Shown piece after piece: positions 480-34,269 of a DNA stretch of 64,000 bases (position 1 is its first letter; every line of letters starts with the position of its first letter). The position numbers and the translations under genes are program-made. This stretch comes from a phage: sequence record PX104378.1; one strand, 5' to 3'. The notes under the pieces were generated by a model, which had not been told where the DNA came from, searched no databases, and saw nothing but the letters and a program-made list of their open reading frames with translations.

Positions 480-2531
480 TTACATTTTAAATTTATCTGG
501 CATTGCGTCTACAGATACCAGATCAGCGATAAGCTGACGTAGAGTTGCCTTATCTGCTTTCTTACGTTCGGTTTTAGCTTCGGTAATAAAGCTGGAGAAA
601 GACAGGTCAGAAGCAGGTTTAACAACACCTTCACGGATGAATGCATCACCGTCCGCGATCATCTCGCCAGATTCTTGTAATGCTGCCAGTTCATTTTTGT
701 TCATAATATGTGCCTCAATGTAATAAGTTTCTTGTGAATCCGTCGATGCCGTAGCACGAGTTACCGTATCAAAGGATAACACAACACCGCGAGGAAGTAA
801 AATCTCGCATTCTTTGTAAGCAAATGCTTTGTTACCTACTGGCAATACGGGGATGTTTTCCGCGCCAGCAATGGAGAAAGCAACATTAGCGCCACCTTCA
901 CCGCGAGATCCAGCCATAGAATCTACACCAGCAACGGCACTAGCCACGTTTGCATTCCAGCCGCCAAAAATGTTAGGTGCAAGGGAAGTGCTCACATAGT
1001 TTTTAAAGTAAAACGCTTTTTGCTTACGTGCAGTTTCCCACATTTGCGACCGGAAGTCCATACCACGATACAGAATAGTACCAGGATCAAGTTTAACGCC
1101 ATAGTTGGAGAAGGCATTATCCAGTGCATCGCACATCTTGACCAATTCTTCTGGATCTGCGATGCCTTCAAACTCTTCCAGCTTACGGTCGGTTAGGAAG
1201 TTGTTCATATTGATGTATGCTGCATCGGCATATTCGCTCAACACAAAACCTTCCGCGCCCGGCAGATCAAGATCAATATCTGCCATCATTTCACCCATGT
1301 TGCTAGCAATTGCTTCAAACATACCGGAAGCAACATTACGTAGGGCATCGGTTTTAATCTGTGTGATGTGACTACGCAGCATTTCAGCTTTTACATCTGC
1401 TGGCATAGACTGGTCTACTCGATCCATTGCCAGGGCGGTGATCTTGTTTTCGAATACTTCCTCGCTCATGATTTCTTTTAAGCGTTTGATTGATGCTGCG
1501 ATAACTTCCGCAGACAACGGATCATATTGATCCTGAACTTTTACCAGTTCGCTTACTGCATATTTTGCATCGGCTTCGCTTTCAAAAATAGTACGCATGA
1601 AACCATAGCGAGTGATAATATCACTTGTCCAGTCATTCAGAGAACGAGCGGTTGAACGTTCTAAGGCTTGACGATCAATCAGAGTATTAAACTGTTTCTT
1701 AGGTTCGGCTTCGGTGATATCTTCTTCTGGTTTAAGATTAATTTTTTCTGGATGATTCACGTAGTCGCTGTTATATGTCGCTTGAGTTTTCAGCATTTCT
1801 TCTTTAGTCAAACGAGATTTAGCCGCTACGCGTTGTTCCGCTTCCGCGTTTCGTTCTTCTTCTGACACAAGACTAGCCGCATACGCCTCATCTTTAGTCA
1901 GAGATTCACCAGTAGCCTTAGATACCCAGCGATCACCTAAATCACTTTCTACTTTAGTGAACAAGGATTCATCAAGTTTAATCCCTTTAATCTTATCAAT
2001 CGCCATCCCGCGACGCTTGACAACAACTAAAGCGATCTTTTTGCTGGTCATTACTTCCTGCTGGAATACTTCAAACTTCGGTGTACGACGCACCAAACGC
2101 TCTATAACGCGCTTAACCAGTTCGGTCTTACCTTTCATGCGGGATACGTTAAAACGGAACATAACAGCGTCTAATTGCGCTTTACGGGCTGTTTCCATAA
2201 CCACATCAAAAGCACTTGCCATAACTGCAATCGGGTTATCGCCTAGACCATTTTTAAGCTGTACAATACGACCGCTTTTGTTCATTTCGCACAGTACAAC
2301 ATGTGCGGTCTTGTCACCCATACGAATGATTTTAGGTGTTTTGTTGGTGAAGTTACAAAGACGGACAATCACATCTTTATCGCGTGTCTGTACTGCAAAA
2401 AGCTGTTTAGGATTCTGCTTAGGCTTTAAGCACTGTACCGGAGCAATACTGCCAAAGTTTTCTTCCTCTTCCGTCAACAGCCATTTCTCGAAAGATTCAA
2501 TCATTAGATCGTCGATTTCTAAGTTAAACAT
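480..2531 (-). CDS. alt: Alt-like ADP-ribosyltransferase (virion protein)
   Basis: 683 aa (T4 Alt 682 aa); C-terminal R-S-ExE ART signature (YRGMD, STS, ECEILLPRG); GAGGA SD. Confidence 0.85.
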   Translation of the reverse strand: MFNLEIDDLMIESFEKWLLTEEEENFGSIAPVQCLKPKQNPKQLFAVQTRDKDVIVRLCNFTNKTPKIIRMGDKTAHVVLCEMNKSGRIVQLKNGLGDNPIAVMASAFDVVMETARKAQLDAVMFRFNVSRMKGKTELVKRVIERLVRRTPKFEVFQQEVMTSKKIALVVVKRRGMAIDKIKGIKLDESLFTKVESDLGDRWVSKATGESLTKDEAYAASLVSEEERNAEAEQRVAAKSRLTKEEMLKTQATYNSDYVNHPEKINLKPEEDITEAEPKKQFNTLIDRQALERSTARSLNDWTSDIITRYGFMRTIFESEADAKYAVSELVKVQDQYDPLSAEVIAASIKRLKEIMSEEVFENKITALAMDRVDQSMPADVKAEMLRSHITQIKTDALRNVASGMFEAIASNMGEMMADIDLDLPGAEGFVLSEYADAAYINMNNFLTDRKLEEFEGIADPEELVKMCDALDNAFSNYGVKLDPGTILYRGMDFRSQMWETARKQKAFYFKNYVSTSLAPNIFGGWNANVASAVAGVDSMAGSRGEGGANVAFSIAGAENIPVLPVGNKAFAYKECEILLPRGVVLSFDTVTRATASTDSQETYYIEAHIMNKNELAALQESGEMIADGDAFIREGVVKPASDLSFSSFITEAKTERKKADKATLRQLIADLVSVDAMPDKFKM

Positions 2532-2882: not shown

Positions 2883-3401
2883 TTAGTTATTTTTTAATTG
2901 CTCATCTTGCAATAAAGCAATCACATGCTGGCGATGTTCTTCCGATTGAGGCACACCGAAAAAGTTTGTTTTGTAGAAATACTCTAATCGGTCTTCTCGT
3001 GTGCTCTCTTCCATCATGATCGCGGGTAGTCCGAGATTTCGGAAACGTCGCTTTTCTGCTGGCGTAAAATCGCTGTAATACAGCATAGAATCATCATTAC
3101 CAGCAATGCTAAACTCATCCTTCATGAAGGAGAATATTGCGTTTAAACGCTGTTTACCGTCCACTATTTCGATTTCATAGCGAGAGCCATCATCAATCTT
3201 AGCCATTGCGATAGCACCAACCGGAAAATCATTAATCAGGTTTTCGATAAACATACGTTTGTTTTCGGTGTCCCATACCAAAGGACGCTGATAATCTGGG
3301 TTCATGTTGATATAGCCATCTTCTAACCACGCCTCATAAACAGAGATGACAAAGTTTTTAGTATTGGTATAGTAACGGCGTTTAGGAGTTAAACGGTTCA
3401 T
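2883..3401 (-). CDS. standalone DUF262 / ParB-like domain protein
   Basis: 172 aa; YQRPLVW and IVDGKQRLNAIF match the DUF262 QR..VW and DGQQR motifs; no DUF1524/HNH partner domain. Confidence 0.6.
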   Translation of the reverse strand: MNRLTPKRRYYTNTKNFVISVYEAWLEDGYINMNPDYQRPLVWDTENKRMFIENLINDFPVGAIAMAKIDDGSRYEIEIVDGKQRLNAIFSFMKDEFSIAGNDDSMLYYSDFTPAEKRRFRNLGLPAIMMEESTREDRLEYFYKTNFFGVPQSEEHRQHVIALLQDEQLKNN

Positions 3402-3577
3402 AGTGTGCTTACCTTTTCAATATATGCGTCCGCATACTGGCGAATGCTCATTTCTTCTCGTACTGCTGCTACAAATTCTTTCATGGATTCAAACCATTTG
3501 TAGGTGTCGCGATACATGACCAACTCTTCCCAAGTAAGATCGCAAATCTCTTTACCGTGTAGTTGTGGTGTTATCAT
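3398..3577 (-). CDS. small hypothetical protein (59 aa)
   Basis: ATGA start/stop overlaps with both neighbours (translational coupling); not in ORF track because under 60 aa. Confidence 0.4.
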   Translation of the reverse strand: MITPQLHGKEICDLTWEELVMYRDTYKWFESMKEFVAAVREEMSIRQYADAYIEKVSTL

Positions 3578-3912
3578 AATATAGTTCTCCTGAATGGATC
3601 ATCACGTAAATCAATATCTTTTAAGAACTCATCCCATGAATAGCGGATATTGTTCTTAATTCTCCAGATAAGCGCAGGGATTGAACGCTCTCCCATCTGG
3701 AAGTATGGATCGTATGATCCGTATGCCCAATATGCTACTACAATTCCACAATCAGCGCAATAGTATTCTATTTCACTTGCTGGCGACAAAAGTCCATCAA
3801 TATGATCAGTGATCTTGCTTTCGATGTTATGGCTATGACAATCAGGGCAACGGATGCAATGACCTTGTTTATCGTAATTTGACGTTAGCGAATACTTAAA
3901 CAATCTCATCAT
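3574..3912 (-). CDS. Cys/His-rich Zn-binding protein (112 aa)
   Basis: CIRCPDCHSH ... CADCG cysteine/histidine cluster; 4-nt overlaps with flanking genes. Confidence 0.5.
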   Translation of the reverse strand: MMRLFKYSLTSNYDKQGHCIRCPDCHSHNIESKITDHIDGLLSPASEIEYYCADCGIVVAYWAYGSYDPYFQMGERSIPALIWRIKNNIRYSWDEFLKDIDLRDDPFRRTIL

Positions 3913-4625
3913 AGATCCTTATTGGCTTCAAATACTGCCTTTGCGAATCCTCGCGGGGTAAGTGACCTGATAGTCTTTGTTCTGGTTCCTTTCCCGCCTA
4001 GCTTAGAATGCTGTTTACTGTACCCTTTCTCAATCGGCAACGGTTTCTTTTCTGGCATTATAAAGCCTTGTCCGGTCCATAAGCAAGTCTTTTTCGGGTA
4101 CATATCACGGGCGGCAATATACTCAGGAAACGTAGGATGTATATCATCTTCCGGCAAATAACCGCCATATTCCCACGGGTGGAACATGTAATCAGGCTTA
4201 CGCCACATGCTAGAGATAACGCTTACAGGATTCTCTATCATGTAGGGAACTCCTAGCCATTCACCCAAATAAGCGGTTATTTTAGCTGCCCGTACATCAT
4301 GAACTTGAATTAATGGTCCTTGCTCTCGTTTCTTTCGTTCAAAGTGTGCAGCGCCACTAACAGCTAAATTGGTACACGGTGGGAATGCAAAGATAATATC
4401 CGGTTTCCCCCATTCAAGGTCCATTGCTCTTTCCAGCCAATTCAAATCAATCCATGTGTTTACATAGGTAATGTTTGGATGTTCAAATCGGGTATTATAT
4501 TTTTTGTATGTACCGTGGTCGCCGTCGTCAGCATTGAAGCAGATCACCTTATGACCTGCTTTAGCCCATTCTAGCCCCATTATCCCCGATCCGTCAAAGT
4601 TGCAGAATATTAATTTTTGTTTCAT
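3909..4625 (-). CDS. truncated C5-cytosine methyltransferase-like protein
   Basis: 238 aa; FCNFDGSGIMG (motif I FxGxG), FPPCTNLAVSG (motif IV PC), YMIENP (motif VI ENV-like); no TRD or motifs IX-X. Confidence 0.5.
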   Translation of the reverse strand: MKQKLIFCNFDGSGIMGLEWAKAGHKVICFNADDGDHGTYKKYNTRFEHPNITYVNTWIDLNWLERAMDLEWGKPDIIFAFPPCTNLAVSGAAHFERKKREQGPLIQVHDVRAAKITAYLGEWLGVPYMIENPVSVISSMWRKPDYMFHPWEYGGYLPEDDIHPTFPEYIAARDMYPKKTCLWTGQGFIMPEKKPLPIEKGYSKQHSKLGGKGTRTKTIRSLTPRGFAKAVFEANKDL

Positions 4626-5198: not shown

Positions 5199-5366
5199 TT
5201 ATTTGTTAATTTCTGGTGCGTTGCTAGGATAGTAACCTTCTTTAACTCCGAGGTATTTCGCAACCATCCCTACAATCTTCTGTGCTACTACAATGTCAAA
5301 TTTCAGATAATCTTCGCCGTGGGTTTCAATGATATATGCTTCACATGCTGCTTTAGTCTCGAACAT
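5199..5366 (-). CDS. small hypothetical protein (55 aa), paralog of 8461..8628
   Basis: MFETKAACEAYIIETHGEDYLKFDIVVAQKIVGMVAKYLGVKEGYYPSNAPEINK; nearly identical to the 8461..8628 product. Confidence 0.5.
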   Translation of the reverse strand: MFETKAACEAYIIETHGEDYLKFDIVVAQKIVGMVAKYLGVKEGYYPSNAPEINK

Positions 5367-5399: not shown

Positions 5400-5428
5400 A
5401 TTATAGGGGATCTCCCGATCCCCGTCAA
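5400..5428 (-). promoter_or_regulatory. sigma70-type early promoter cassette
   Basis: TTGACG-GGGATCGGGAGATCCCC(17)-TATAAT on minus strand. Confidence 0.55.
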
Positions 5429-6192: not shown

Positions 6193-6501
6193 TCATTTAG
6201 ACAAATAATCATTCTGTGCAATCCGGTCGGCGTATGCTGGTGTTACGTCAATCGCAATCACTTTAACGCGTGCTTTCTTGCGACCTGGGTTTTCTCGTAA
6301 CCAGTGCTCATGACCGTGAACATTTTTATACTGCGATGCTTCTTCGAAGGTACGGATCGGACCTGGGTAATCAGCGTAAAGGATCTCTAGATCTTCGGTG
6401 ATGTAAAAATATACATCGTAATTGCTGTTCTCTAGCTTAAGCAGAGACTTTCGGAACATTGGGAGATTTTCGCGGGTAAATTCAAAGATATTATCTTTCA
6501 T
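6193..6501 (-). CDS. HxHW-family small protein, copy 1 (102 aa)
   Basis: HGHEHW ... VKVIAIDV motif shared with five paralogs; GAGGA SD. Confidence 0.6.
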   Translation of the reverse strand: MKDNIFEFTRENLPMFRKSLLKLENSNYDVYFYITEDLEILYADYPGPIRTFEEASQYKNVHGHEHWLRENPGRKKARVKVIAIDVTPAYADRIAQNDYLSK

Positions 6502-6515
6502 AGTATTATCCTCAA

Positions 6516-6536
6516 TAGTTGGATGAAAAGGGGGCT
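6516..6536 (-). terminator. GC hairpin terminator
   Basis: GGGGGC-TTAAC-GCCCCC followed on minus strand by UUUU. Confidence 0.55.
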
Positions 6537-6551
6537 TAACGCCCCCATATA

Positions 6552-6839
6552 TTAAAACAGTCCTTCTTGTACGCCGTAGTAGAGTTCGTCGCTGATAATT
6601 TCATTAATGCGACGGTGTGCATATTCCTGATTTGCGAAGTTGTCAGCAAGTTCTACTTTAGTTTCGCCGTCATGAGTCCATTTAGTGATAACTTTACCAT
6701 CTGCAAATTTGAAGTTGAACTCTTTAGCTACTGCATCGCGTACCAGACGTGCAAACTTGTTGTTACGGATTGCATTATCGGTTTCGTGTGCAGCGTGAGC
6801 AAATTTGTTAACTTTCAGCGTGATAGTGATGTATGCCAT
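6552..6839 (-). CDS. hypothetical protein (95 aa)
   Basis: ORF behind cassette leader TAGGAGAATCAAATTATG. Confidence 0.55.
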   Translation of the reverse strand: MAYITITLKVNKFAHAAHETDNAIRNNKFARLVRDAVAKEFNFKFADGKVITKWTHDGETKVELADNFANQEYAHRRINEIISDELYYGVQEGLF

Positions 6840-6885
6840 AATTTGATTCTCCTAGTTAGAAAGTGTATCTCGTTTCGATGGGTGT

Positions 6886-6914
6886 ATTATGCTATACACC
6901 CGATCTTATGTCAA
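6886..6914 (-). promoter_or_regulatory. sigma70-type early promoter cassette
   Basis: TTGACA-N17-CATAAT on minus strand. Confidence 0.55.
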
Positions 6915-6920
6915 CACTTT

Positions 6921-7199
6921 TTATAAAATAATTTTTTGATATTTTTCTATGATGTTCGTGTAATCCACATCAACCGCTATCACCGTTGCTTCGAATCCAC
7001 CGTTTAGCCAATGGCTATGGTCATGATCGTGAAAGAAACCAAGACCAGTACGAAGACCTTCTTTATATTCGGCGCGTACATTTAGATCATCATCGATAAA
7101 CAGATAAAACCATGAATTTTTACTAGGATTGATGATACAACCTTTCAGATTAGGGAGAATATCACGACTAAGAATAAACTTATCACCTACTTTGAACAT
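6921..7199 (-). CDS. HxHW-family small protein, copy 2
   Basis: HDHDHSHW ... TVIAVDV; start moved to internal ATG (MFKVGDKF) that has a GAGGA SD. Confidence 0.55.
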   Translation of the reverse strand: MFKVGDKFILSRDILPNLKGCIINPSKNSWFYLFIDDDLNVRAEYKEGLRTGLGFFHDHDHSHWLNGGFEATVIAVDVDYTNIIEKYQKIIL

Positions 7200-7203
7200 A
7201 ATA

Positions 7204-7524
7204 TTAGTCCTCACTTATAAGGTCAAACCAATTGTTTTTCGCATAATGCTTAATGCGTGCTTGATCTGCTTCTGCTGGTGATAGATTCCATGCAACCACT
7301 ACAACTTCTGACGCATCGTCATCCGTTTCTGATACCCAATGATTATGATTCATACAATTGTTTGCTATCGCGTGAGCAAATGATTTCATCACTGGAGACG
7401 TATAATCATAGTAACGGATTTTCAGATTTTCATCAACGTACAAATAGATCGTATAAGGTTTATATTCAGTAACCAGTAACAGACAGTTACGCAATTCTGG
7501 GAAAATATTTTTAGTTAATTTCAT
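7204..7524 (-). CDS. HxHW-family small protein, copy 3 (106 aa)
   Basis: NHNHW ... VVVVAWN; GGAGAA SD. Confidence 0.55.
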   Translation of the reverse strand: MKLTKNIFPELRNCLLLVTEYKPYTIYLYVDENLKIRYYDYTSPVMKSFAHAIANNCMNHNHWVSETDDDASEVVVVAWNLSPAEADQARIKHYAKNNWFDLISED

Positions 7525-7739
7525 ATTCTAGTTCTCCGTAATACACGGTAATCCATTTTTTCTTCATACTTTGTATCTTTCCAACACACAATCCCGTTTA
7601 CTGTGCAATCTTTGGAATTGACGAATGATTCATATTGTTCTGCATCTTCCATCATTGCATGAGCGGTCTTTTCATCGAATATATCGCAGATCGCTTTATA
7701 TGCTCGATAATCTTTAAATTTGCTCATAATTAAGACCAC
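7521..7739 (-). CDS. hypothetical protein (72 aa), tandem paralog A
   Basis: MSKFKDYRAYK... shares N-terminus and C..W..T.Y pattern with 7730..7939. Confidence 0.5.
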   Translation of the reverse strand: MVLIMSKFKDYRAYKAICDIFDEKTAHAMMEDAEQYESFVNSKDCTVNGIVCWKDTKYEEKMDYRVLRRTRI

Positions 7740-7939
7740 TCAAGAGTTTTTGAAAACACATCTATCCATTGTTGAGTATATGCGGTTTCTTTCCATGATA
7801 CAATACCAGTCGAATAATGGTTTTTGTTTCCAGAAAAGGACGGGCATTTTGAGGCATCTTCCATCATCTTTTCGGCGAACTCTGGTTCGTATACTCGCAA
7901 GATCTGTTGATATGCTTTATAATCTTTAAATTTGCTCAT
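7730..7939 (-). CDS. hypothetical protein (69 aa), tandem paralog B
   Basis: MSKFKDYKAYQ... paralog of 7521..7739. Confidence 0.5.
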   Translation of the reverse strand: MSKFKDYKAYQQILRVYEPEFAEKMMEDASKCPSFSGNKNHYSTGIVSWKETAYTQQWIDVFSKTLEWS

Positions 7940-8204
7940 AATTGTTAACTACCTTATCAGCTTCTTTTATTGTTTTTACATCAACTGCGATAATCCGTAA
8001 AGGTTCGTCGAAGGTCCACCAATGATCGTGATTATCAGCTTGTGATTTATCACCAAAGGAATCACGAATATCATTTTTACATTTATAGCTAATGTGACCT
8101 TCATAGTCAACATAAAGGTAATTATCAAAAATCGGCGTTTTTAAGATCATACCGAAAAATCTTTCTTTGTGTGTCTTATCCAGCGTTGCAGTAATTCGCA
8201 TCAT
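7926..8204 (-). CDS. HxHW-family small protein, copy 4 (92 aa)
   Basis: DNHDHWW ... RIIAVDV; AGAGGA SD. Confidence 0.6.
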   Translation of the reverse strand: MMRITATLDKTHKERFFGMILKTPIFDNYLYVDYEGHISYKCKNDIRDSFGDKSQADNHDHWWTFDEPLRIIAVDVKTIKEADKVVNNYEQI

Positions 8205-8216
8205 AATATATTCCTC

Positions 8217-8396
8217 TTAGAAAGGGATGGTCATTTCTTGAGCTTGTACATTCTCGTTAGGATTAAACTTCATCCAACCGATATTGTCTACCAGCATATG
8301 CACATTTTTATCATATCCTACGTGAGTAGTCAATACTGTATGTGCTTTACCTTCAACGATGATTTCCATGTACTTCTGAACTTCGATAGCTTTCAT
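8217..8396 (-). CDS. small hypothetical protein (59 aa)
   Basis: MKAIEVQKYMEIIVEGKAHTVL...; cassette leader GGAGAATCAAAATG. Confidence 0.45.
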   Translation of the reverse strand: MKAIEVQKYMEIIVEGKAHTVLTTHVGYDKNVHMLVDNIGWMKFNPNENVQAQEMTIPF

Positions 8397-8428
8397 TTTG
8401 ATTCTCCGTTTGTTGTCTTGATGGGAGT

Positions 8429-8457
8429 ATCTTACTACTCCCTTTAATCATTGTCAA
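8429..8457 (-). promoter_or_regulatory. sigma70-type early promoter cassette
   Basis: TTGACA-N17-TAAGAT on minus strand. Confidence 0.5.
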
Positions 8458-8460
8458 CGA

Positions 8461-8628
8461 TTATTTGTTAATTTCCGGTGCGTTGCTTGGATAGTAACCT
8501 TCTTTAACACCCAGATATTTTGCAACCATTCCGGTGATCTTCTGTGCTACTACGATATCGAATTTCAGGTAGTCTTCACCGTGGTTTGCTACAATGTATG
8601 CTTCGCATTCTGCTTTAGTCTGGAACAT
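8461..8628 (-). CDS. small hypothetical protein (55 aa), paralog of 5199..5366
   Basis: MFQTKAECEAYIVANHGEDYLKFDIVVAQKITGMVAKYLGVKEGYYPSNAPEINK; start taken at internal ATG behind the cassette leader. Confidence 0.5.
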   Translation of the reverse strand: MFQTKAECEAYIVANHGEDYLKFDIVVAQKITGMVAKYLGVKEGYYPSNAPEINK

Positions 8629-8662
8629 TTTTGATTCTCCTATATCTCGTTGGTATGTGTGC

Positions 8663-8692
8663 ATTATAGGGGATCGGTGACCCCCCTGTCAA
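8663..8692 (-). promoter_or_regulatory. sigma70-type early promoter cassette
   Basis: TTGACA-GGGGGGTCACCGATCCCC(18)-TATAAT on minus strand. Confidence 0.55.
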
Positions 8693-8699
8693 CAACTTT

Positions 8700-9002
8700 T
8701 TATTCTTCGTCTTTATCTTTATATGCGTATTTCATAAATTTGTCTGCCACTTCGTCCGCGTTTTCAGGTTCTACGTCTGACGCTAGGACAACAGCTAGTT
8801 CGGTTTTGTCGTTTCCATCATACCAATGATTATGAGTGTCGTTTTCTTCGATATAAAACGAATCATTTGGATATGGGCGACAATATACGTCTAAATTCCC
8901 ATCGATATAAAAGATCCAATCCGAATACAAAATGATTGTTTTAGCCAGATTTTTATTGTCTCTTACAAAAGGTTCCGCGACAAATAGCTTAGTTTGTTCC
9001 AT
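8700..9002 (-). CDS. HxHW-family small protein, copy 5
   Basis: THNHW ... LAVVLASDV; start at internal ATG (MEQTKLF) with GAGGAG SD. Confidence 0.55.
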   Translation of the reverse strand: MEQTKLFVAEPFVRDNKNLAKTIILYSDWIFYIDGNLDVYCRPYPNDSFYIEENDTHNHWYDGNDKTELAVVLASDVEPENADEVADKFMKYAYKDKDEE

Positions 9003-9018
9003 AGTAATCTCCTCAAAA

Positions 9019-9210
9019 TTATACAACTTCGTAAACTTCCCAATGTCCAACACCGGAACGCTTAACGAAAAGGTTTTCTTTGATGTTATTCATAAACGTC
9101 TGGATGGATTTAATGCGGTTGGAAGGTTTCCAGTCTTCGTTGGCATTGCGGCGATACATAATAACATTACCAGTTCTCTTATATTCAGCAACCATTTTAA
9201 GACCACACAT
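9019..9210 (-). CDS. hypothetical protein (63 aa)
   Basis: ORF with GAGGA SD 9 nt upstream. Confidence 0.4.
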   Translation of the reverse strand: MCGLKMVAEYKRTGNVIMYRRNANEDWKPSNRIKSIQTFMNNIKENLFVKRSGVGHWEVYEVV

Positions 9211-9267
9211 AATATTATCCTCAATTTATGGGAGAGTATTACCCCTCCCAATGATTGTTATATTACA

Positions 9268-9588
9268 TCACACAAAATGGCGTTTCAATGCTTCTTTTGC
9301 GGTTCCGCTAAGACTTTCGATCTCGCCTGGCATAACATCAACTGCCAGAACTTCTACAACATCCTCTGACCCCAACCAGTGAGTATGACCTTTGTAGAAC
9401 TTGATAACCAGACTACCTTCCTCATCCCATTTAACGCTATCGCTAGCCCACCACACATCACCGTCGATAAAGTTGATGTAAAGCACACTACGCCACATTG
9501 AATTAATTACTTTCAATACTGCGCCTTTCATATCTTCCACGGTGTGGTCTTCCATTTTGAAGACCTCGCCTACCTGAACTTTTGCCAT
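9268..9588 (-). CDS. HxHW-family small protein, copy 6 (106 aa)
   Basis: GHTHW ... VLAVDV; GAGGTGA SD. Confidence 0.6.
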   Translation of the reverse strand: MAKVQVGEVFKMEDHTVEDMKGAVLKVINSMWRSVLYINFIDGDVWWASDSVKWDEEGSLVIKFYKGHTHWLGSEDVVEVLAVDVMPGEIESLSGTAKEALKRHFV

Positions 9589-9819: not shown

Positions 9820-9848
9820 AGTATAGGGGATCACCGATCCCCTGTCAA
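9820..9848 (-). promoter_or_regulatory. sigma70-type early promoter cassette
   Basis: TTGACA-GGGGATCGGTGATCCCC(17)-TATACT on minus strand. Confidence 0.55.
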
Positions 9849-9861
9849 CAACTTTTTTGAA

Positions 9862-10338
9862 TTATTTTTCTTGATGCTCGCGCTCGTACTTTTCGAAATA
9901 AAATTCTACTGGCTGGTCGTGGATTGACAGTAAGCCAAAGCGTTTAGCCGCTCGCAACCCCATATTGCGCTGAATGTACTTCTGGAAGTTCTCGCGTATA
10001 CACTTACGCCAGTATTCTAAGCCCATACAGCTTTTATAAAGATTGCATTGCACACACGCCGGATTCATGTTATCAAGTATATCATGCTCCGGTTTATGCA
10101 TTCCTACAACCTTATACTTCCACGATCCATCATCATTACGGGCAATTCGTCCATTTTCATCATAGACTACTTTTGAGCGTCGTAATACTGGTTTGATGTG
10201 GTCTGCGTGCCAGCGATCCCCTAGTTCCTCGCCACAATAGGCACAACGTCCACCATATTTCATTTTCAGGATCTGGCGTTGCTCTTTCTTTGACAATTTT
10301 TTAGGTTTAGGGGCTTTCGCCCCTTCATTATCACACAT
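9862..10338 (-). CDS. HNH endonuclease (homing-endonuclease-like)
   Basis: 158 aa; CAYCG ... WHADHIKP ... NMNPACVQCN (HNH with flanking Cys pairs); start overlaps ligase stop by 8 nt. Confidence 0.7.
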   Translation of the reverse strand: MCDNEGAKAPKPKKLSKKEQRQILKMKYGGRCAYCGEELGDRWHADHIKPVLRRSKVVYDENGRIARNDDGSWKYKVVGMHKPEHDILDNMNPACVQCNLYKSCMGLEYWRKCIRENFQKYIQRNMGLRAAKRFGLLSIHDQPVEFYFEKYEREHQEK

Positions 10339-11833
10339 CGAATACCTCTTTTACTGTATTTGCAGTGGTCTTGTCGTAGCGAATACGTTTGATGATCGGG
10401 AGAAATAAAGAGAACTCCGGTTCATCTTCTTTACGTGATTTGCTGCGGATATACCCGTTGCATGTCATCTCAATGACTTTTCCAATCAGGTTATGACGGT
10501 CAGCCCATAACATTTCTCGGTCAAGTTCATTTCGACGATCGAACGGAATTACACGTTCGATACCATCATCACCTTTTTCGGTTGTAGTGTCGGTTAATCC
10601 CGATCCGGTGTTAGTCATCATTCGTCCACACGCACTACGGACAGTAAAACCGCCTACCTTATTGGGGTCTTTACTATGCGGATATACATCAACAATTTCC
10701 GCGTCGAAGTCAATCACTTCTTTAAATTTAACCTGATCTTTACTACGGCGATCTTCAAATACACCATGCAGATTTTTAAGGATAATACCTTCTAAGCCCA
10801 TGTTTACATAGCGATGATATACTTCGCGAGCTTCATCGATATTGTTAACTACAGTATTTTCGATTATCTGAACACGAGGATCGTTAAGTTCTTCAACAAT
10901 CTGTTTTAGTTCTTCGAATCGATCTTTATATTGCTTCGTTGCTCTCTCGTTTCCGTAATACACATCACGGTCGATAACATCCCAGACAGTGTAAACAATA
11001 CATTGGGCTTCTTCTTTTGGAATAGTTCCTTTCAGTGATTTGTTGAGGATACCATTTCCGGTCTGACGATCCGCAACAACGGATTCTTTTACTGCTTCCG
11101 CTACTGGCGTTAATGGTATTTCCTCTTCTTCAAATATCCATGACAGAGTACCATCATAAACGCTCTCAACGAAGTTCTGCGCTGGTGTTTGCGAAAGGGT
11201 AGGCATATATACCAATTCGCCATCTAGAACAATTCCACGGCCTCGTAGACGCTCTAAAACAGAAAACAAATCATCCAGCCCCTGGTAGGTATTACCTGAA
11301 CGGGTATAGATTGCTAATGTTTCCCCGTCAATATCAGCCATACCACGAGCGCCATCACTTTTAAGCTGTGCATATGCCGGATATTTGATATTAGCAATAG
11401 CCTTATCAGAATATGACGATGCAAGGTGGCATGGTTGCTGGGGGATCAGTTTCTTCCATACCTTGTTTGCAGTGGTAGCGGAACAACCGCATTCCAGATC
11501 ACGATTCAGGACCATCATTGCAACTTTAGCATCATCTTCTGACAAGCAAGTCAGAGTATCGGTAACTAGCTGTAATGCTGCATTACCAGTTACTTGACGC
11601 GTGGCAAGTTTATTTTTAAAGACCTGCAATGCACCGGATAAAGACAATACAGACGAATAGCGCGATGGTTTATCGTATTTCTTTACGCCAAACGTAACCT
11701 GTTTGCAATATGCCAGATAAAAGCATTCTTTCAGCGTTTCATTGCTTGCAGATTCTTTCAGGATCTTTTCTTTCAGCGATGTTTTGTCGGTCGCTGCAAG
11801 CTGGTTAATGATATTAAGAATTGACATTTTCAC
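10331..11833 (-). CDS. 30: ATP-dependent DNA ligase
   Basis: 500 aa; KSDGARG adenylation motif (KxDG); N-terminal half aligns with recalled T4 gp30 (...TGNAA..., ...RDLECG..., LASSY). Confidence 0.9.
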   Translation of the reverse strand: MKMSILNIINQLAATDKTSLKEKILKESASNETLKECFYLAYCKQVTFGVKKYDKPSRYSSVLSLSGALQVFKNKLATRQVTGNAALQLVTDTLTCLSEDDAKVAMMVLNRDLECGCSATTANKVWKKLIPQQPCHLASSYSDKAIANIKYPAYAQLKSDGARGMADIDGETLAIYTRSGNTYQGLDDLFSVLERLRGRGIVLDGELVYMPTLSQTPAQNFVESVYDGTLSWIFEEEEIPLTPVAEAVKESVVADRQTGNGILNKSLKGTIPKEEAQCIVYTVWDVIDRDVYYGNERATKQYKDRFEELKQIVEELNDPRVQIIENTVVNNIDEAREVYHRYVNMGLEGIILKNLHGVFEDRRSKDQVKFKEVIDFDAEIVDVYPHSKDPNKVGGFTVRSACGRMMTNTGSGLTDTTTEKGDDGIERVIPFDRRNELDREMLWADRHNLIGKVIEMTCNGYIRSKSRKEDEPEFSLFLPIIKRIRYDKTTANTVKEVFDV

Positions 11834-12293
11834 CTCGTTTTGTTAAACGTTCACGAATATCATTGAGGATACTACAAAATTCCGATTCGGTCAATATGGT
11901 CTTTAACGGATCAGTTCCACCTATGCTATGACGCAATTTCTTATTTCCGGTAGCGAGTAATGCTTTACAAAATTCTGGGTTATTCCGTGCCATCGTAACA
12001 AATGCCAGATGTACCAGTCTGTAATAATGCTCACTCATTCTATGAATCGGGCGACCCTGAAAATATAGCATGTGATTCTCTATCTTTTCAGCCCTTCCGG
12101 TTCTTTTTGCTTTGCCACCGTGCATCAAAAAGATTTCTCTTTGTCTCTGAGGGTTCTTAAATCTTAGCCCCTGTAAAAATCCTTCTGTGCTGTTAATATC
12201 GCAACCAAATAGACGGAATGGTCTTTTATTGAAATTACTCAATTCACCCGATGGATAAGGTCCACCCGCATAGATATCAATTTCAGAAGTCAT
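11814..12293 (-). CDS. NADAR / YbiA-like (DUF1768) protein
   Basis: 159 aa; ELSNF ... STEGFLQGLRF ... ALLATGNKKLRH parallels E. coli YbiA FSNF ... TSEHYFQAQKF ... ALLLATAPAKLVEH. Confidence 0.55.
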   Translation of the reverse strand: MTSEIDIYAGGPYPSGELSNFNKRPFRLFGCDINSTEGFLQGLRFKNPQRQREIFLMHGGKAKRTGRAEKIENHMLYFQGRPIHRMSEHYYRLVHLAFVTMARNNPEFCKALLATGNKKLRHSIGGTDPLKTILTESEFCSILNDIRERLTKRGENVNS

Positions 12294-12447
12294 TGAAACT
12301 AATCTCGCTAATCATAGAGAACGGATCATAATCGTCATGAGGAATATCGATAGTAATCGAATGAGGATTTACCCATACACCAAACTGGTCTTCTTCGGTG
12401 AATACTTCGGTATGGATTTCGTGGATGTTTACATTCATAGTTTTCAT
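12283..12447 (-). CDS. small acidic hypothetical protein (54 aa)
   Basis: AAGGAA SD; stop overlaps start of NADAR-like gene. Confidence 0.4.
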   Translation of the reverse strand: MKTMNVNIHEIHTEVFTEEDQFGVWVNPHSITIDIPHDDYDPFSMISEISFNDF

Positions 12448-22789: not shown

Positions 22790-22859
22790 ATTACCTCACT
22801 TCATATTTTAGCAGGAACAAGTTTATCCTCCATATTGGGGGGCTTTCGCCCCCTTTTGT

Positions 22860-24092
22860 TTATACTGCCATTTGAGCGGTGATTGCTGGATGGCTTTGAT
22901 AGTTGTGAATTTTAAAGTCTTTCGGAGTCTTTGTCAATACCTCATCTAAAGATTTAAATTCCGGCAACTCAATTGTTGGTTTATCAAACGGAACACGGCT
23001 TAACTGTTCAATAACTTGATCAAAATGGTTTTTGTAAATGTGAGTATCTCCACCAGAGAAAATCAGTTCTCCTACCTCAAGATCACACATTTTCGCTATG
23101 ATGTGAGTTAACAGCGCATAGCTGGCAACATTAAAGGGCAAGCCCAAAAAGCTGTCTACGCTTCGCTGAAACCACATACAAGACAGTTTACCTTCATTGA
23201 CATAGAATTGCACGAACGGATGACATACACCTAATACAGCATTATGTGTTCCTTGTACGTTCCATGAGTCAATAATGATCCGGCGATCCGTTGGATTGTT
23301 TTTAATTTGTTCAATCACGTTTTGTAATTGGTCTTCCCAAATCTTCGGGCGATAGACATATTCTTCATCGTCTTTAGTGCTCGATGTGTCTACGTCCATA
23401 CTAGCAAAAATCGTGGTATCTGGTGCTAAAATATCCCCACCCAGATAATCACTATCAAGTAGATAACCGAAATAACCATCATCTACCCATTCCTGGAATC
23501 CCCACAAGCAATATGCATCATTAACAAAATTAGATTGAGTCTTCCAGTGGTCTGCTACTAAGAATAGATTATATTCAGAATCAAACTCTTCATAACGCAT
23601 ACCACGCCAGATAGCACATAAACGGTCTTCTGTGTCGTTGGTTGGCGTAAAGTCTTCTACCCACGGGTGTTTAAATGTATGTGTATATTTGCTCTTAACG
23701 CGCTTAATTTTGATTTCACCGTGTGGGTGAATCGGTTTGCGTCGCCACGCCATACCATACATATTGCCGACATTATAACCATTGAATCGCAAAGGATTCT
23801 TTTCTTTCATATCAAGACAGTTGCCGCGCCAAATGTCGAAGGCTTCTTCGTCAAACTTACCGCGTGTAATTTCCTGTAAGCGACGGCGGTCAAGTGATCC
23901 CTCCATAAACCATATCAACTCGCCAATTACAGAGGCTGTAGCCATCTTTTTAGTGGTCAGTAAGGGGAAACCCTTTCTTAAATCAATTCGCATCTCTGCG
24001 CCGAATTTAGAGAGCGTACCTACCCCCGTGCGGTCTTCACGAGGCCAGCCATTATCAAGAACATCACGCAACAGTTTCAAATATTCTTTCAT
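22860..24092 (-). CDS. td: thymidylate synthase with large internal insertion
   Basis: 410 aa; TS motifs DRTGVGT, TTKK, DRRIIIDSWN, VCHPFVQFYV, GLPFNVASYALL; about 115 extra residues between the YG.AWRR and QLQNVIEQIK blocks. Confidence 0.8.
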   Translation of the reverse strand: MKEYLKLLRDVLDNGWPREDRTGVGTLSKFGAEMRIDLRKGFPLLTTKKMATASVIGELIWFMEGSLDRRRLQEITRGKFDEEAFDIWRGNCLDMKEKNPLRFNGYNVGNMYGMAWRRKPIHPHGEIKIKRVKSKYTHTFKHPWVEDFTPTNDTEDRLCAIWRGMRYEEFDSEYNLFLVADHWKTQSNFVNDAYCLWGFQEWVDDGYFGYLLDSDYLGGDILAPDTTIFASMDVDTSSTKDDEEYVYRPKIWEDQLQNVIEQIKNNPTDRRIIIDSWNVQGTHNAVLGVCHPFVQFYVNEGKLSCMWFQRSVDSFLGLPFNVASYALLTHIIAKMCDLEVGELIFSGGDTHIYKNHFDQVIEQLSRVPFDKPTIELPEFKSLDEVLTKTPKDFKIHNYQSHPAITAQMAV

Positions 24093-33400: not shown

Positions 33401-34235
33401 GGAAAACTCATGGTCTATTATCGTTGGTGGTACTGGAACAGCGCAAGTTGTTGATAGTGACGCTATCGCTTTCGGTAAAATCAATGATGGTGGATTCGTC
33501 GAGCATTACGCCTTTGCTATGGAACACAATGGCGACGCGGCAGCATATAGAGACTTTATTGCAGGTCGTAACCTGTATGCGAAACAAGGCGGTTTATACA
33601 TTGTTGACCAGTCTAATCCGGCAATGACTCGTTCCCCAGATGGTATGCTGAATATCGGTCACGGTGGAAGTGTTAATATCAAGGCAGGTTATCAAACGTT
33701 AACTACAGAGATCGCCGGACAGAAATATCAGATCGTACACGCAGGAAACGCAGACGAAGTTCTTAACCGTCAGTTTGTTAAGAATGCTGGCGATACAATG
33801 GTCGGTAAGCTGATTATGGATAATGCGCCTATTGTTTCTGTTAAGCATGAAGCTAGCGCGGCAACCGCTCCGGCAATCGGTAACATCGGTTTCTGGAATA
33901 TGCGCGTTACTACCCAGAACATCAAAGAAACTTATCCAGAGAAGAAAAACGGTACTCTGATGCAATGGGGTACTGACGAGGACGGGCTTACCCAGCTTTG
34001 GTCCCCTGATGGTACTCATAAACATTATATCCGTTCCGGTACTGGTGGTCAATGGACCGCATGGGGTGAAATTTACACCAAACAGAATAAGCCTACCGCT
34101 CAGGAAATCGGGGCAGTAGTTGCAGAAGGTGGTTTAATGAACTCTATGACGGTTCGTGATTGGATCAAAGTTGGTAATGTTAAAATCATCGCCAATAATC
34201 TGACTCGTACCGTAGACTTTATCTGGGAAGACTAA
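30495..34235 (+). CDS. 34: long tail fibre proximal subunit gp34
   Basis: 1246 aa; N-terminus ...DAGNEKVVNVALADKNVNTDAVNVE...YDTTRGY matches recalled T4 gp34; internal GIAEIATQ...TPKKL repeats. Confidence 0.85.
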   Translation: MADFSQHFKATFGFDAGNEKVVNVALADKNVNTDAVNVEFFNYHNGITQYDTTRGYDQYGTTIYQNRPYYAKEDITKPAGDFDPTKWQALRTDPRWDYIAATSGDTPLKSGDYIAADGQFANLTFSMPNKPAEGDTITVKDIGGKCGVNELSFLSSGHEFYHNGNVYNRKWYCTTPYAMNYFIFVRNRWHVYQTGTEPRGVYAQPAIDAIQMQNGDQVFRRSSLGNITLVLPKFANNGDMIQTTDLDGLTATNHVTVKVHEHAEEQSIGTFGLKEIIGKRSGHGVFIFDKPENLWRVWDGDQSVRLKPIIDDTRLQPNSYVAVFGDHDVTLTLPTNVEPGDRIQVSMQYMHGNQNCRIITAAEDTKILMQKNMVQFPKRSEYPFNGTETWKEVSELSFNAASDYVPYLEFSYSEGDDGKKHWLVAHAHPIVERVDPTRKARVGVIALATQTETNKNHEENPSDEVAVTPKMLANKTANETRRGIARIATQEETHQDTGSSFLDDVIVTPKKLNDCVATEARRGVMEIATQHETNEGLDDTRAITPKKLEERRASEDLAGIAEIVQVGGNAAARRGEAGTGIYNINDHAKIVTPQNINEVKATETSRGVGYLATDAEVQGATESTPQDALLITTRTLTKRTATESRTGIAEIATQEETNLGQSDNHIITPKKLHTRRATETLHGLAEIATQPEFDAGRDDARISTPLKIKTFFENAQRLKVDPTQGLNLTGDLWQGIMISGLDATEDTKGVAKVATTQLTDAGQDDTTIITPKKLQGKKATEGKEGIIRVGTQAETVAGVLANVAISPKNFKYVVQTEDTWKATEARRGFLKVATQENCFVGDNLQGSTQELGNYQHDGIAVTPKGLNYALANFLPKMATAQNSLKLGNVEAAKWARRDIDQTIESNYTFNKNVNVKGDLECLKSGSFETLFVTKNSTDDPSNGHLVLGERGVDGHTGITLHGTTASEGMENSWSIIVGGTGTAQVVDSDAIAFGKINDGGFVEHYAFAMEHNGDAAAYRDFIAGRNLYAKQGGLYIVDQSNPAMTRSPDGMLNIGHGGSVNIKAGYQTLTTEIAGQKYQIVHAGNADEVLNRQFVKNAGDTMVGKLIMDNAPIVSVKHEASAATAPAIGNIGFWNMRVTTQNIKETYPEKKNGTLMQWGTDEDGLTQLWSPDGTHKHYIRSGTGGQWTAWGEIYTKQNKPTAQEIGAVVAEGGLMNSMTVRDWIKVGNVKIIANNLTRTVDFIWED

Positions 34236-34269
34236 TTAAAGGGGGGCGAAAGCCCCCTATGGGGTTATT

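Follow-up and report, generated by a model that had tools for sequence, protein, structure and literature searches.

The ligase/HNH junction

The window analysed here is a stretch of 64,000 nucleotides of phage DNA (sequence record PX104378.1), in which a small HNH nuclease gene follows directly on the gene of the DNA ligase gp30. The 3.5 kb around the HNH open reading frame (ORF) are 95-99% identical to 60 records of the RB49 group (genus Krischvirus, Straboviridae), with Shigella phage JK32 being the closest record (99.0%). The junction of the two genes comprises the following features:

10331..11833, minus strand: gene for the gp30 ATP-dependent DNA ligase, 500 aa (PF01068, E=5e-22)
10345..10350, minus strand: Shine-Dalgarno motif AAGAGG of the HNH ORF, within the final ligase codons (sequence read directly)
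10331..10338, minus strand: 8-nt overlap ATGTGTGA of HNH start and ligase stop, the same in 10 of 10 aligned genomes
9862..10338, minus strand: gene for the HNH nuclease (H-N-N variant with a predicted CCCC zinc site), 158 aa, ortholog of RB49 ORF212c / RB49p212
10277..10365, minus strand: 89-nt invariant stretch spanning the ligase/HNH junction (alignment of 10 Krischvirus genomes)

Direct reading of the sequence places the HNH ATG at 10338-10336 and the ligase TGA at 10333-10331, so that 8 nt are common to both ORFs, in agreement with the original prediction that the HNH start overlaps the 3' end of the ligase gene. The Shine-Dalgarno motif (10350-10345) lies 6 nt 5' of the HNH ATG, and judged by this arrangement the overlap is likely the site of translational coupling. 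Neither a T4-type late promoter (TATAAATA) nor a strong sigma-70 promoter was found directly 5' of the HNH ORF. Folding showed its ribosome-binding site not to be sequestered, with the wider fold not being significant (z=-1.47). The invariant stretch at the junction is the longest such run in the 3-kb alignment of 10 Krischvirus genomes, and positions 10272-10371 are at least 99% identical in 55 of the 59 full Krischvirus records. A junction of this kind is compatible with co-conversion; other gene overlaps are conserved, too.

The overlap had been regarded as a typical homing-endonuclease arrangement, a view not supported in this genomic setting. Of the 29 junctions of consecutive minus-strand ORFs within the first 13 kb of the window, 13 overlap, and the T4 ligase gene is likewise overlapped by the gene following it, alt.1, so that an overlap of start and stop is not diagnostic of a homing gene. 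Proximity to an essential gene together with an overlapping start is thus insufficient for calling a homing endonuclease in T4-type genomes.

Both the gene and its assignment are already known. The RefSeq orthologs RB49p212 (NP_891783.1), phi1 ORF212 and JSE EpJSE_00219 are all labelled 'HNH endonuclease', and the 'putative mobile DNA elements' compiled for RB49 by Nolan et al. (2006; PMC1524935) include RB49ORF212c, named there an 'HNH endonuclease' (Pfam E=9.2e-7). Accordingly, the finding is not new but has been part of the RB49 literature and of RefSeq since 2003-2006. RB49 ORF212c, phi1 ORF212 and JSE EpJSE_00219 represent the same gene, with 98-100% amino-acid identity, the same site after gp30 and the same 8-nt overlap. 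RB49, JSE and G2494 feature a 157-aa form, the end codons of which are swapped at an ORF211 insertion directly 3', whereas the studied phage has the 158-aa form with a PeSL promoter directly 3'. A literature search found no experimental work on the Krischvirus HNH gene. The ligase ORF of the window measures 1,503 nt compared with 1,497 nt in the RefSeq orthologs, its 5' end being 6 nt longer.

The GC hairpin at the start of the HNH gene

The first HNH codons contain a GC hairpin, as had been noticed before, which belongs to a class found at further sites of the window:

10309..10324, minus strand: GC hairpin AGGGGC-GAAA-GCCCCT (6 bp), HNH codons 5-10, 6-7 nt past the ligase stop
10309..10332, minus strand: 24-nt in-frame segment (DNEGAKAP) bearing the hairpin, missing from a 70%-identical metagenomic ortholog
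22838..22853: post-stop hairpin of the same class, after a 410-aa ORF ending at 22860
34242..34257: post-stop hairpin of the same class, after a 1,246-aa ORF ending at 34235

A 51-nt segment with the hairpin folds at about -12.6 kcal/mol. The whole window holds 38 GC-rich hairpins as opposed to a mean of 3.35 in dinucleotide shuffles, an about tenfold enrichment which argues against a chance occurrence. Three copies of the motif GGGG(G)C-GAAA-GCCCC(C) (mRNA sense) exist, all of them 6-7 nt past the stop codon of a gene, and the motif can thus be described as a post-stop intercistronic element; the copy at the ligase end is translated through as part of the HNH ORF. A degenerate PeSL promoter was considered for the same sequence and rejected, because no -35/-10 hexamers flank it and it fits the post-stop class.

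The 70%-identical metagenomic HNH protein starts with MCKPKKL and lacks exactly the 24 nt of the hairpin segment. The Krischvirus hairpin is therefore an in-frame indel in the N-terminal tail of the protein, which is modelled with low confidence. Being stable and starting 14 nt into the ORF, the hairpin probably hampers independent initiation, so that HNH would be synthesized at a low level and mainly by ribosomes which finish the ligase and terminate there.

The variable region downstream

On its 3' side, the HNH gene borders a region of small ORFs extending to the alt homolog:

9862..9877, minus strand: final 16 nt of the HNH ORF, replaced with the ORF211 insertion in 22 of 59 relatives
9820..9848, minus strand: PeSL-type early promoter with TTGACA, a 17-nt GGGGATC..GATCCCC stem-loop (GGGGATCGGTGATCCCC) and TATACT (aligned sequences, PMC2839356)
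2532..9861, minus strand: hyperplastic interval from the HNH gene to the alt homolog, with about 25 small ORFs
3909..4625: C5-methyltransferase-like gene, 66% nucleotide identity to the methylase of phage Sasha, 5.2 kb downstream of HNH
480..2531: alt homolog (PF03496)

The PeSL promoter begins 13 nt past the HNH stop codon, and with it begins the PeSL-driven hyperplastic region known from RB49-like phages (Arbiol et al., 2010; PMC2839356). The gap between ligase and alt spans about 7.8 kb in Krischvirus, with HNH as its first gene, whereas in T4 it contains alt.1 alone. Directly 3' of HNH, three layouts of gene content exist, leading straight to ORF209 (as in the studied phage), via ORF210, or via ORF211 and ORF210. 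Where ORF211 is inserted, the protein ends with ...ERENKE instead of ...EREHQEK. The variability 3' of HNH is a property of the PeSL cassettes and not of the HNH gene.

Motif, fold and domain architecture

The assignment of the 158-aa product as an HNH protein with flanking cysteine pairs is well founded. It matches the Pfam family HNH (PF01844) with 27 bits (cut-off 21.4, E=5e-6), with a long insert in the protein restricting the alignment to the first half of the profile, and PHROG 2118 'HNH endonuclease' with E=8e-55. In a family alignment of 50 homologs, taken from 179 matches in a collection of 5.8 billion proteins, the residues C32, C35, D46, H47, N90, C95, C98, N99 and K102 do not vary, and neither does a C-terminal F-x-FE motif. 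Due to this invariance, both cysteine pairs and the catalytic residues D46, H47, N90 and N99 can be regarded as real. The final 'H' of the motif is an asparagine, resulting in an H-N-N variant, and a variable beta-hairpin insert separates the DH from the N. The two CxxC pairs (C32/C35 and C95/C98) form a predicted structural zinc site.

The AlphaFold model of the protein is confident (pLDDT 92.5) apart from the N-terminal tail and features the beta-beta-alpha fold of the HNH superfamily. Conserved C-terminal helices comprise residues 107-156. Matches in the PDB were weak, both by Foldseek and by sequence search. Pfam gives PF01844 only, and no DNA-binding domain of a known homing-enzyme type was found in the protein. 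Searching 1.84 billion representatives with the family profile yielded 157 cluster representatives at E<=1e-30, 1,550 at 1e-10 and 6,933 at 1e-3. Almost all of these matches have a length of 110-220 aa and are matched in one stretch, and among the 150 best ones nearly all are single-domain proteins of about 110-250 aa; their small size and the one-stretch matching suggest a single-domain family without fused DNA-binding modules. Besides, a defence HNH effector (PtuB, retron HNH, Cap5) was considered and rejected, with PADLOC and NCBIfam matches being marginal (E=5e-4 to 8e-3, far below the cut-offs) and no defence partner genes (PtuA, RT, SAVED) lying adjacent to HNH.

Fixation and selection in Krischvirus

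The HNH ORF is present in 59 of 59 full Krischvirus records with a ligase gene, always as a single, ligase-adjacent copy with 96.6-100% nucleotide identity, these genomes forming a shallow clade (dS about 0.15) which stems almost exclusively from E. coli and Shigella. A 60th ligase match is a 1.5-kb fragment record that stops short of the HNH ORF and was left out. Likewise, tblastn recovered the protein with at least 95% amino-acid identity in 59 of 59 records. No broken copies were seen among them, and the 20 Krischvirus matches listed each consist of one unbroken piece. Two IMG/VR contigs with 98-99% identical ligases both carry the HNH ORF as well. An empty site, i.e., a ligase gene without the HNH ORF, was found neither among the 59 records nor on these two contigs, so that within the genus the ORF occupies this position in all sampled relatives and shows no sign of mobility. 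Four jumbo-phage ligases in IMG/VR (41-43% identical) are followed by unrelated genes and are useless as empty sites.

The dN/dS ratio of HNH, calculated over 10 sequences only, is 0.014 (36 of 153 codons variable, with three amino-acid changes), the ratios of the ligase, 30.3 and gp31 being 0.043, 0.027 and 0.044, respectively. Relaxed constraint or decay, the sign of a homing cycle once an element is fixed, is absent from the Krischvirus HNH. Nevertheless, a benefit to the phage and ongoing selection for homing or for marker exclusion during mixed infection are not distinguishable by purifying selection alone.

Outside this shallow clade only one deeper relative was found, on the metagenomic contigs L031 and L032. 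Its HNH protein is 70% identical, with the catalytic residues intact, and its gene is adjacent to and overlaps the ligase gene, the C-terminus of which is also 70% identical (173/246). The same adjacency at equal divergence implies that the pairing of ligase and HNH is older than the genus and that the two genes diverged in step. This co-divergence runs opposite to the cycle of invasion, fixation and decay expected of a homing endonuclease gene.

Relatives in other phages

Beyond these orthologs, the next-best phage homologs of the Krischvirus HNH are at most 49% identical. The closest one, from Morganella phage vB_Mm5 (Straboviridae), occupies a different locus. Further homologs, from siphoviruses and temperate phages, are located close to int/xis, to recombination genes (RecT, RdgC, SSB) or to DNA methyltransferase genes, and family members usually sit in operons with overlapping stops. 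The small HNH proteins of PHROG 2118 / PF01844, such as Sasha gp76, IncHI2 WP_000241452.1 and HCM1.27c of pHCM1, share 35-50% identity and the same domain layout with the Krischvirus protein: an N-terminal helix, CxxC, DH, the beta-hairpin insert, N, CxxCN..K and a helical C-terminus with FYFEK. In comparison to these relatives, the Krischvirus HNH is extended at its N-terminus by a tail of about 13 residues, which reaches the ligase stop and contains the hairpin. Moreover, the gene is fixed in Krischvirus, whereas it is sporadic elsewhere in the family.

In Salmonella phage Sasha, the homolog is a precise single-ORF insertion between an ORF of the SLOG family and the ParB promoter, its ATG overlapping the upstream stop and its own stop lying within the next -35 box. 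Escherichia phage PJ16 is devoid of exactly this ORF, with flanks that are 94-97% identical. This clean indel indicates that the family can come or go as a cassette in 9NA-like phages and, together with the other locus in vB_Mm5, makes a selfish origin and perhaps a residual selfish activity plausible. Of the mobile insertion originally suggested at the ligase gene, the mobility thus stands for the family, while for the Krischvirus gene itself fixation and the low dN/dS speak against it. Sporadic presence and absence among close relatives was found only for the 44%-identical homolog in Sasha versus PJ16, and not in Krischvirus.

Proposed origin and function

In all relatives known so far the Krischvirus HNH gene is intact and highly conserved, which gives it the appearance of an established, resident gene and not of a homing endonuclease that still jumps actively. 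At a probability of roughly 0.6, it is best explained as an anciently acquired small nicking nuclease which is now fixed and under selection, with its expression coupled to that of the ligase. Its family consists of promiscuous small HNH proteins (about 120-180 aa) found in phages, both temperate and virulent, and on conjugative plasmids. An ancestor of the RB49 lineage would have gained the gene as a single-ORF cassette just 3' of the ligase, where the variable region between ligase and alt has its proximal edge. Vertical inheritance with the ligase, genus-wide fixation and strong purifying selection would have followed. Fixation and purifying selection together point to a gene which today is resident and beneficial to the phage, and not to an actively homing element. 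It is a stable, strongly selected member of the gene set that diverged along with the ligase. Its discovery value is small.

The protein belongs to the single-domain nucleases of the beta-beta-alpha-metal type with a predicted structural CCCC zinc site, in which H47 (with D46) may act as the general base and N90 and N99 may hold the catalytic metal. By analogy with characterised small phage HNH enzymes with two CxxC pairs (Xu and Gupta, 2013; PMC3592412), its most likely activity is the nicking of DNA at short sites that occur frequently. The characterised small zinc-site phage HNH nickases comprise the N.phiGamma group, the Gme HNH (4H9D), the GVE2 HNH (5H0O) and HK97 gp74. The Krischvirus protein differs from them by its H-N-N motif, a longer insert between DH and N and a location that is not beside cos or terminase. 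As to its expression, the gene would have no promoter of its own and would depend on the start overlapping the ligase stop, behind a good ribosome-binding site.

Alternative explanations

Unlikely, though still to be taken seriously, is a free-standing homing endonuclease that remains active, cuts or nicks in or near the ligase gene of HNH-less relatives and is copied in by recombinational repair. This would correspond to intronless homing or marker exclusion like that of the T4 seg and mob genes, and the gene would appear fixed since the sampled population has already been swept. As in MobA-E, I-TevIII, I-HmuI and RB49 ORF040, a stand-alone nuclease ORF of a family of mobile origin lies between conserved T4-type genes, here with a conserved essential gene on one side and the next promoter on the other. 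The presence/absence polymorphism of the Sasha homolog with its identical layout, the different locus in a further T4-like phage and the listing of the RB49 copy among putative mobile elements fit this explanation, and the unusually homogeneous 5' flank of the junction could also have been produced by a co-conversion tract. However, no empty site and no pseudogene turned up in the genus, selection on the protein is strong, and the deep relative keeps the adjacency, with HNH and ligase equally diverged, where a homing cycle predicts decay after fixation. The protein also deviates from the T4-type homing HNHs in belonging to PF01844 instead of HNH_3, in having no AP2- or NUMOD-type module or otherwise recognisable DNA-binding domain, and in not being sporadic in close relatives. 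Furthermore, its gene has neither an own promoter nor a regulatory hairpin of the described kind that would sequester the ribosome-binding site. The truly variable HNH genes of the RB49-like genus are others, namely the AP2-HNH RB49 ORF040 (PMC2839356) as well as ORF131 and ORF240 of Makalu_002 (PMC11611945).

A structure-specific or recombination nuclease like endonuclease VII or lambda Rap is improbable. In one version, such an enzyme would cut the GC stem-loops of PeSL and thereby start cassette shuffling and the formation of mini-circles, in line with the location of the gene, which borders on the PeSL-rich hyperplastic region, and with the family members near int/xis, RecT, RdgC and SSB genes in temperate phages. 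T4 endonuclease VII (gp49) also has the beta-beta-alpha-metal fold, a zinc site and an active site of H-N-N type, and the HNH protein gives weak secondary matches to PHROG families named 'endonuclease VII' (E=1e-9 and 6e-7), with BFVD neighbours being named likewise. Still, Krischvirus possesses its own gp49 endonuclease VII (44.6% identical to T4 gp49 in JSE), for which reason a gp49 ortholog or a replacement of endonuclease VII was rejected. PeSL motifs were looked for beside the closest homolog, that of the Morganella phage, and none were found. Moreover, the shuffling of PeSL cassettes has been explained through homologous recombination without a dedicated nuclease (PMC2839356).

Quite improbable is also an extension of the preferred reading, in which the resident HNH would be a domesticated, genus-wide partner of the replication and repair module, i.e., a frequent-site nickase whose synthesis is stoichiometrically tied to that of the ligase via the overlap and the lineage-specific 24-nt hairpin insertion. 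If this were true, its nicks could start recombination, e.g., the shuffling of PeSL cassettes or recombination-dependent replication, or could harm the DNA of competitors or the host while the co-expressed ligase guards the phage genome.

A restriction-like pair of the HNH protein and a phage DNA methyltransferase, by which the own DNA is methylated and unmethylated DNA of host or competitors is attacked, has to be considered very improbable. It is suggested by the succession of a C5-methyltransferase gene, the SLOG ORF and HNH in Sasha, an N6_N4 methyltransferase gene overlapping the HNH start in L017, a C5-methyltransferase gene two genes upstream of the homolog in L026 and a further methyltransferase link in Javan133, as well as by the C5-methyltransferase-like gene of the studied phage. 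However, the linkage is loose, given that the two Krischvirus genes are 5 kb and about 20 ORFs apart and that many contexts of the family are free of methylases. The methylase-like protein of the studied phage has no Pfam match and only a weak PADLOC match, and 'McrA' names in the databases are generic COG labels.

T4-type gp17 terminase carries its own nuclease. A packaging HNH of the HK97 gp74 type aiding terminase was brought up by the many small phage HNH genes which adjoin terminase genes (PMC3592412) and by one homolog, that of Bas79, which precedes a terminase gene by about 0.8 kb. It is effectively refuted, as kinship with gp74 was rejected by profile comparison (hhalign probability 0.7%; PHROG 2323 for gp74 versus 2118), the gene is transcribed together with the ligase and has the ligase gene and small early ORFs as neighbours, all annotated terminase genes being far away, and most family contexts are not near terminase genes.

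Occurrence on plasmids

If demonstrated, the function of the Krischvirus HNH would at the same time account for a small nuclease which is very widespread in phages and in plasmids of the IncHI type. Homologs were found in 2,695 plasmid records, 2,445 of which belong to conjugative plasmids (e.g., IncHI2). The plasmid homologs agree with an old note on the RB49 gene which reads 'similar to HCM1.27c'.

Ends of the HNH gene

In an alignment of ten Krischvirus genomes covering the region from gp31 to the HNH gene, the longest invariant run comprises the 89 nt at 10277..10365, which extend over the end of the ligase gene and the start of the HNH gene, and the second- and third-longest invariant runs (12250-12314 and 11805-11861) likewise span gene overlaps. 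At the other end, the final 16 nt of the HNH gene (9862..9877, minus strand) are replaced in 22 of the 59 relatives, resulting in a C-terminus reading ...ERENKE (e.g., loci L004, L019, and L021). In these relatives, ORF211 starts 7 nt past the new HNH stop codon, with its ribosome-binding site located within the final HNH codons; according to Arbiol 2010 (PMC2839356), ORF211 is homologous to an ORF from a Vibrio superintegron.

HNH homologs in other phages and plasmids

A clean presence/absence of an HNH homolog was found between Salmonella phage Sasha (L003, 3986..4414) and Escherichia phage PJ16 (L028, ~1870..1890), the flanks of the indel being 94-97% identical. In Sasha, the insert runs from the stop codon of the upstream gene as far as the ParB promoter's -35 box. 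Homologs of the window's small HNH protein are carried by 2,695 PLSDB plasmids; 2,445 of these are conjugative, and most come from Klebsiella, Escherichia, and Salmonella. In both plasmid contexts inspected, L029 (IncHI2) and L030 (IncY), a gene of the PAPS-reductase family lies a few kb from the HNH homolog.

The ligase-alt interval

The distance between ligase and alt amounts to ~7.8 kb in the window, whereas both genes are nearly adjacent in T4. An Alt-like gene forms the distal boundary of this variable interval, which further includes a C5-methyltransferase-like gene followed by two ORFs:

480..2531, minus strand, Alt-like ADP-ribosyltransferase, 683 aa (PF03496)
3909..4625, minus strand, C5-methyltransferase-like gene with the motifs FPPCT and ENP
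3574..3912, minus strand, TFIIB-type zinc-ribbon ORF
2883..3401, minus strand, GmrSD_N/DUF262 (ParB-like) ORF

The methyltransferase-like gene gave no Pfam match and shares 66% nucleotide identity with the Sasha methylase. In this 9NA-like siphovirus, methylase, HNH homolog, and ParB-like gene stand side by side.

The window as a whole contains five canonical PeSLs, early promoters with a stem-loop between -35 and -10. In each, TTGACA and TAnAAT are separated by a GGGG...CCCC stem-loop of 17-18 nt. Across relatives, their stems are kept while the loop bases differ. PeSLs are also interspersed among the members of a tandem paralog array, small ORFs of 92-117 aa that share the motif Y..D..L ... 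H.HW ... V.A(V/I)DV and belong to PHROG families annotated solely as 'unknown function'. Two further small ORFs are near-identical (...TKA.CEAYI...GEDYLKFDIVVAQKI.GMVAKYLGVKEGYYPSNAPEINK):

43808, 9848, 8692, 5184, and 2875, minus strand, starts of the PeSL -35 hexamers
6193..9588, minus strand, paralog array (6193-6501, 6921-7214, 7204-7524, 7926-8204, 8700-9053, 9268-9588)
5199..5366 and 8461..8664, minus strand, near-identical ORFs

Each of the latter has a PeSL-type stem-loop or promoter nearby (5406-5423 and 5184 for the first, 8692 for the second). Together they look like a duplicated PeSL+ORF cassette, which is the outcome predicted by the PeSL shuffling model.

Post-stop GC hairpins

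Read in mRNA sense, a hairpin of the form GGGG(G)C-GAAA-GCCCC(C) occurs three times in the window:

10309..10324, minus strand
22838..22853, minus strand
34242..34257, plus strand

Each of the three copies follows a gene's stop codon at a distance of 6-7 nt and lacks a U-tract; the hairpin appears to be an intercistronic RNA element dedicated to the post-stop position. Overall, GC hairpins reach 38 matches in the window, compared to 3.35 in shuffles.
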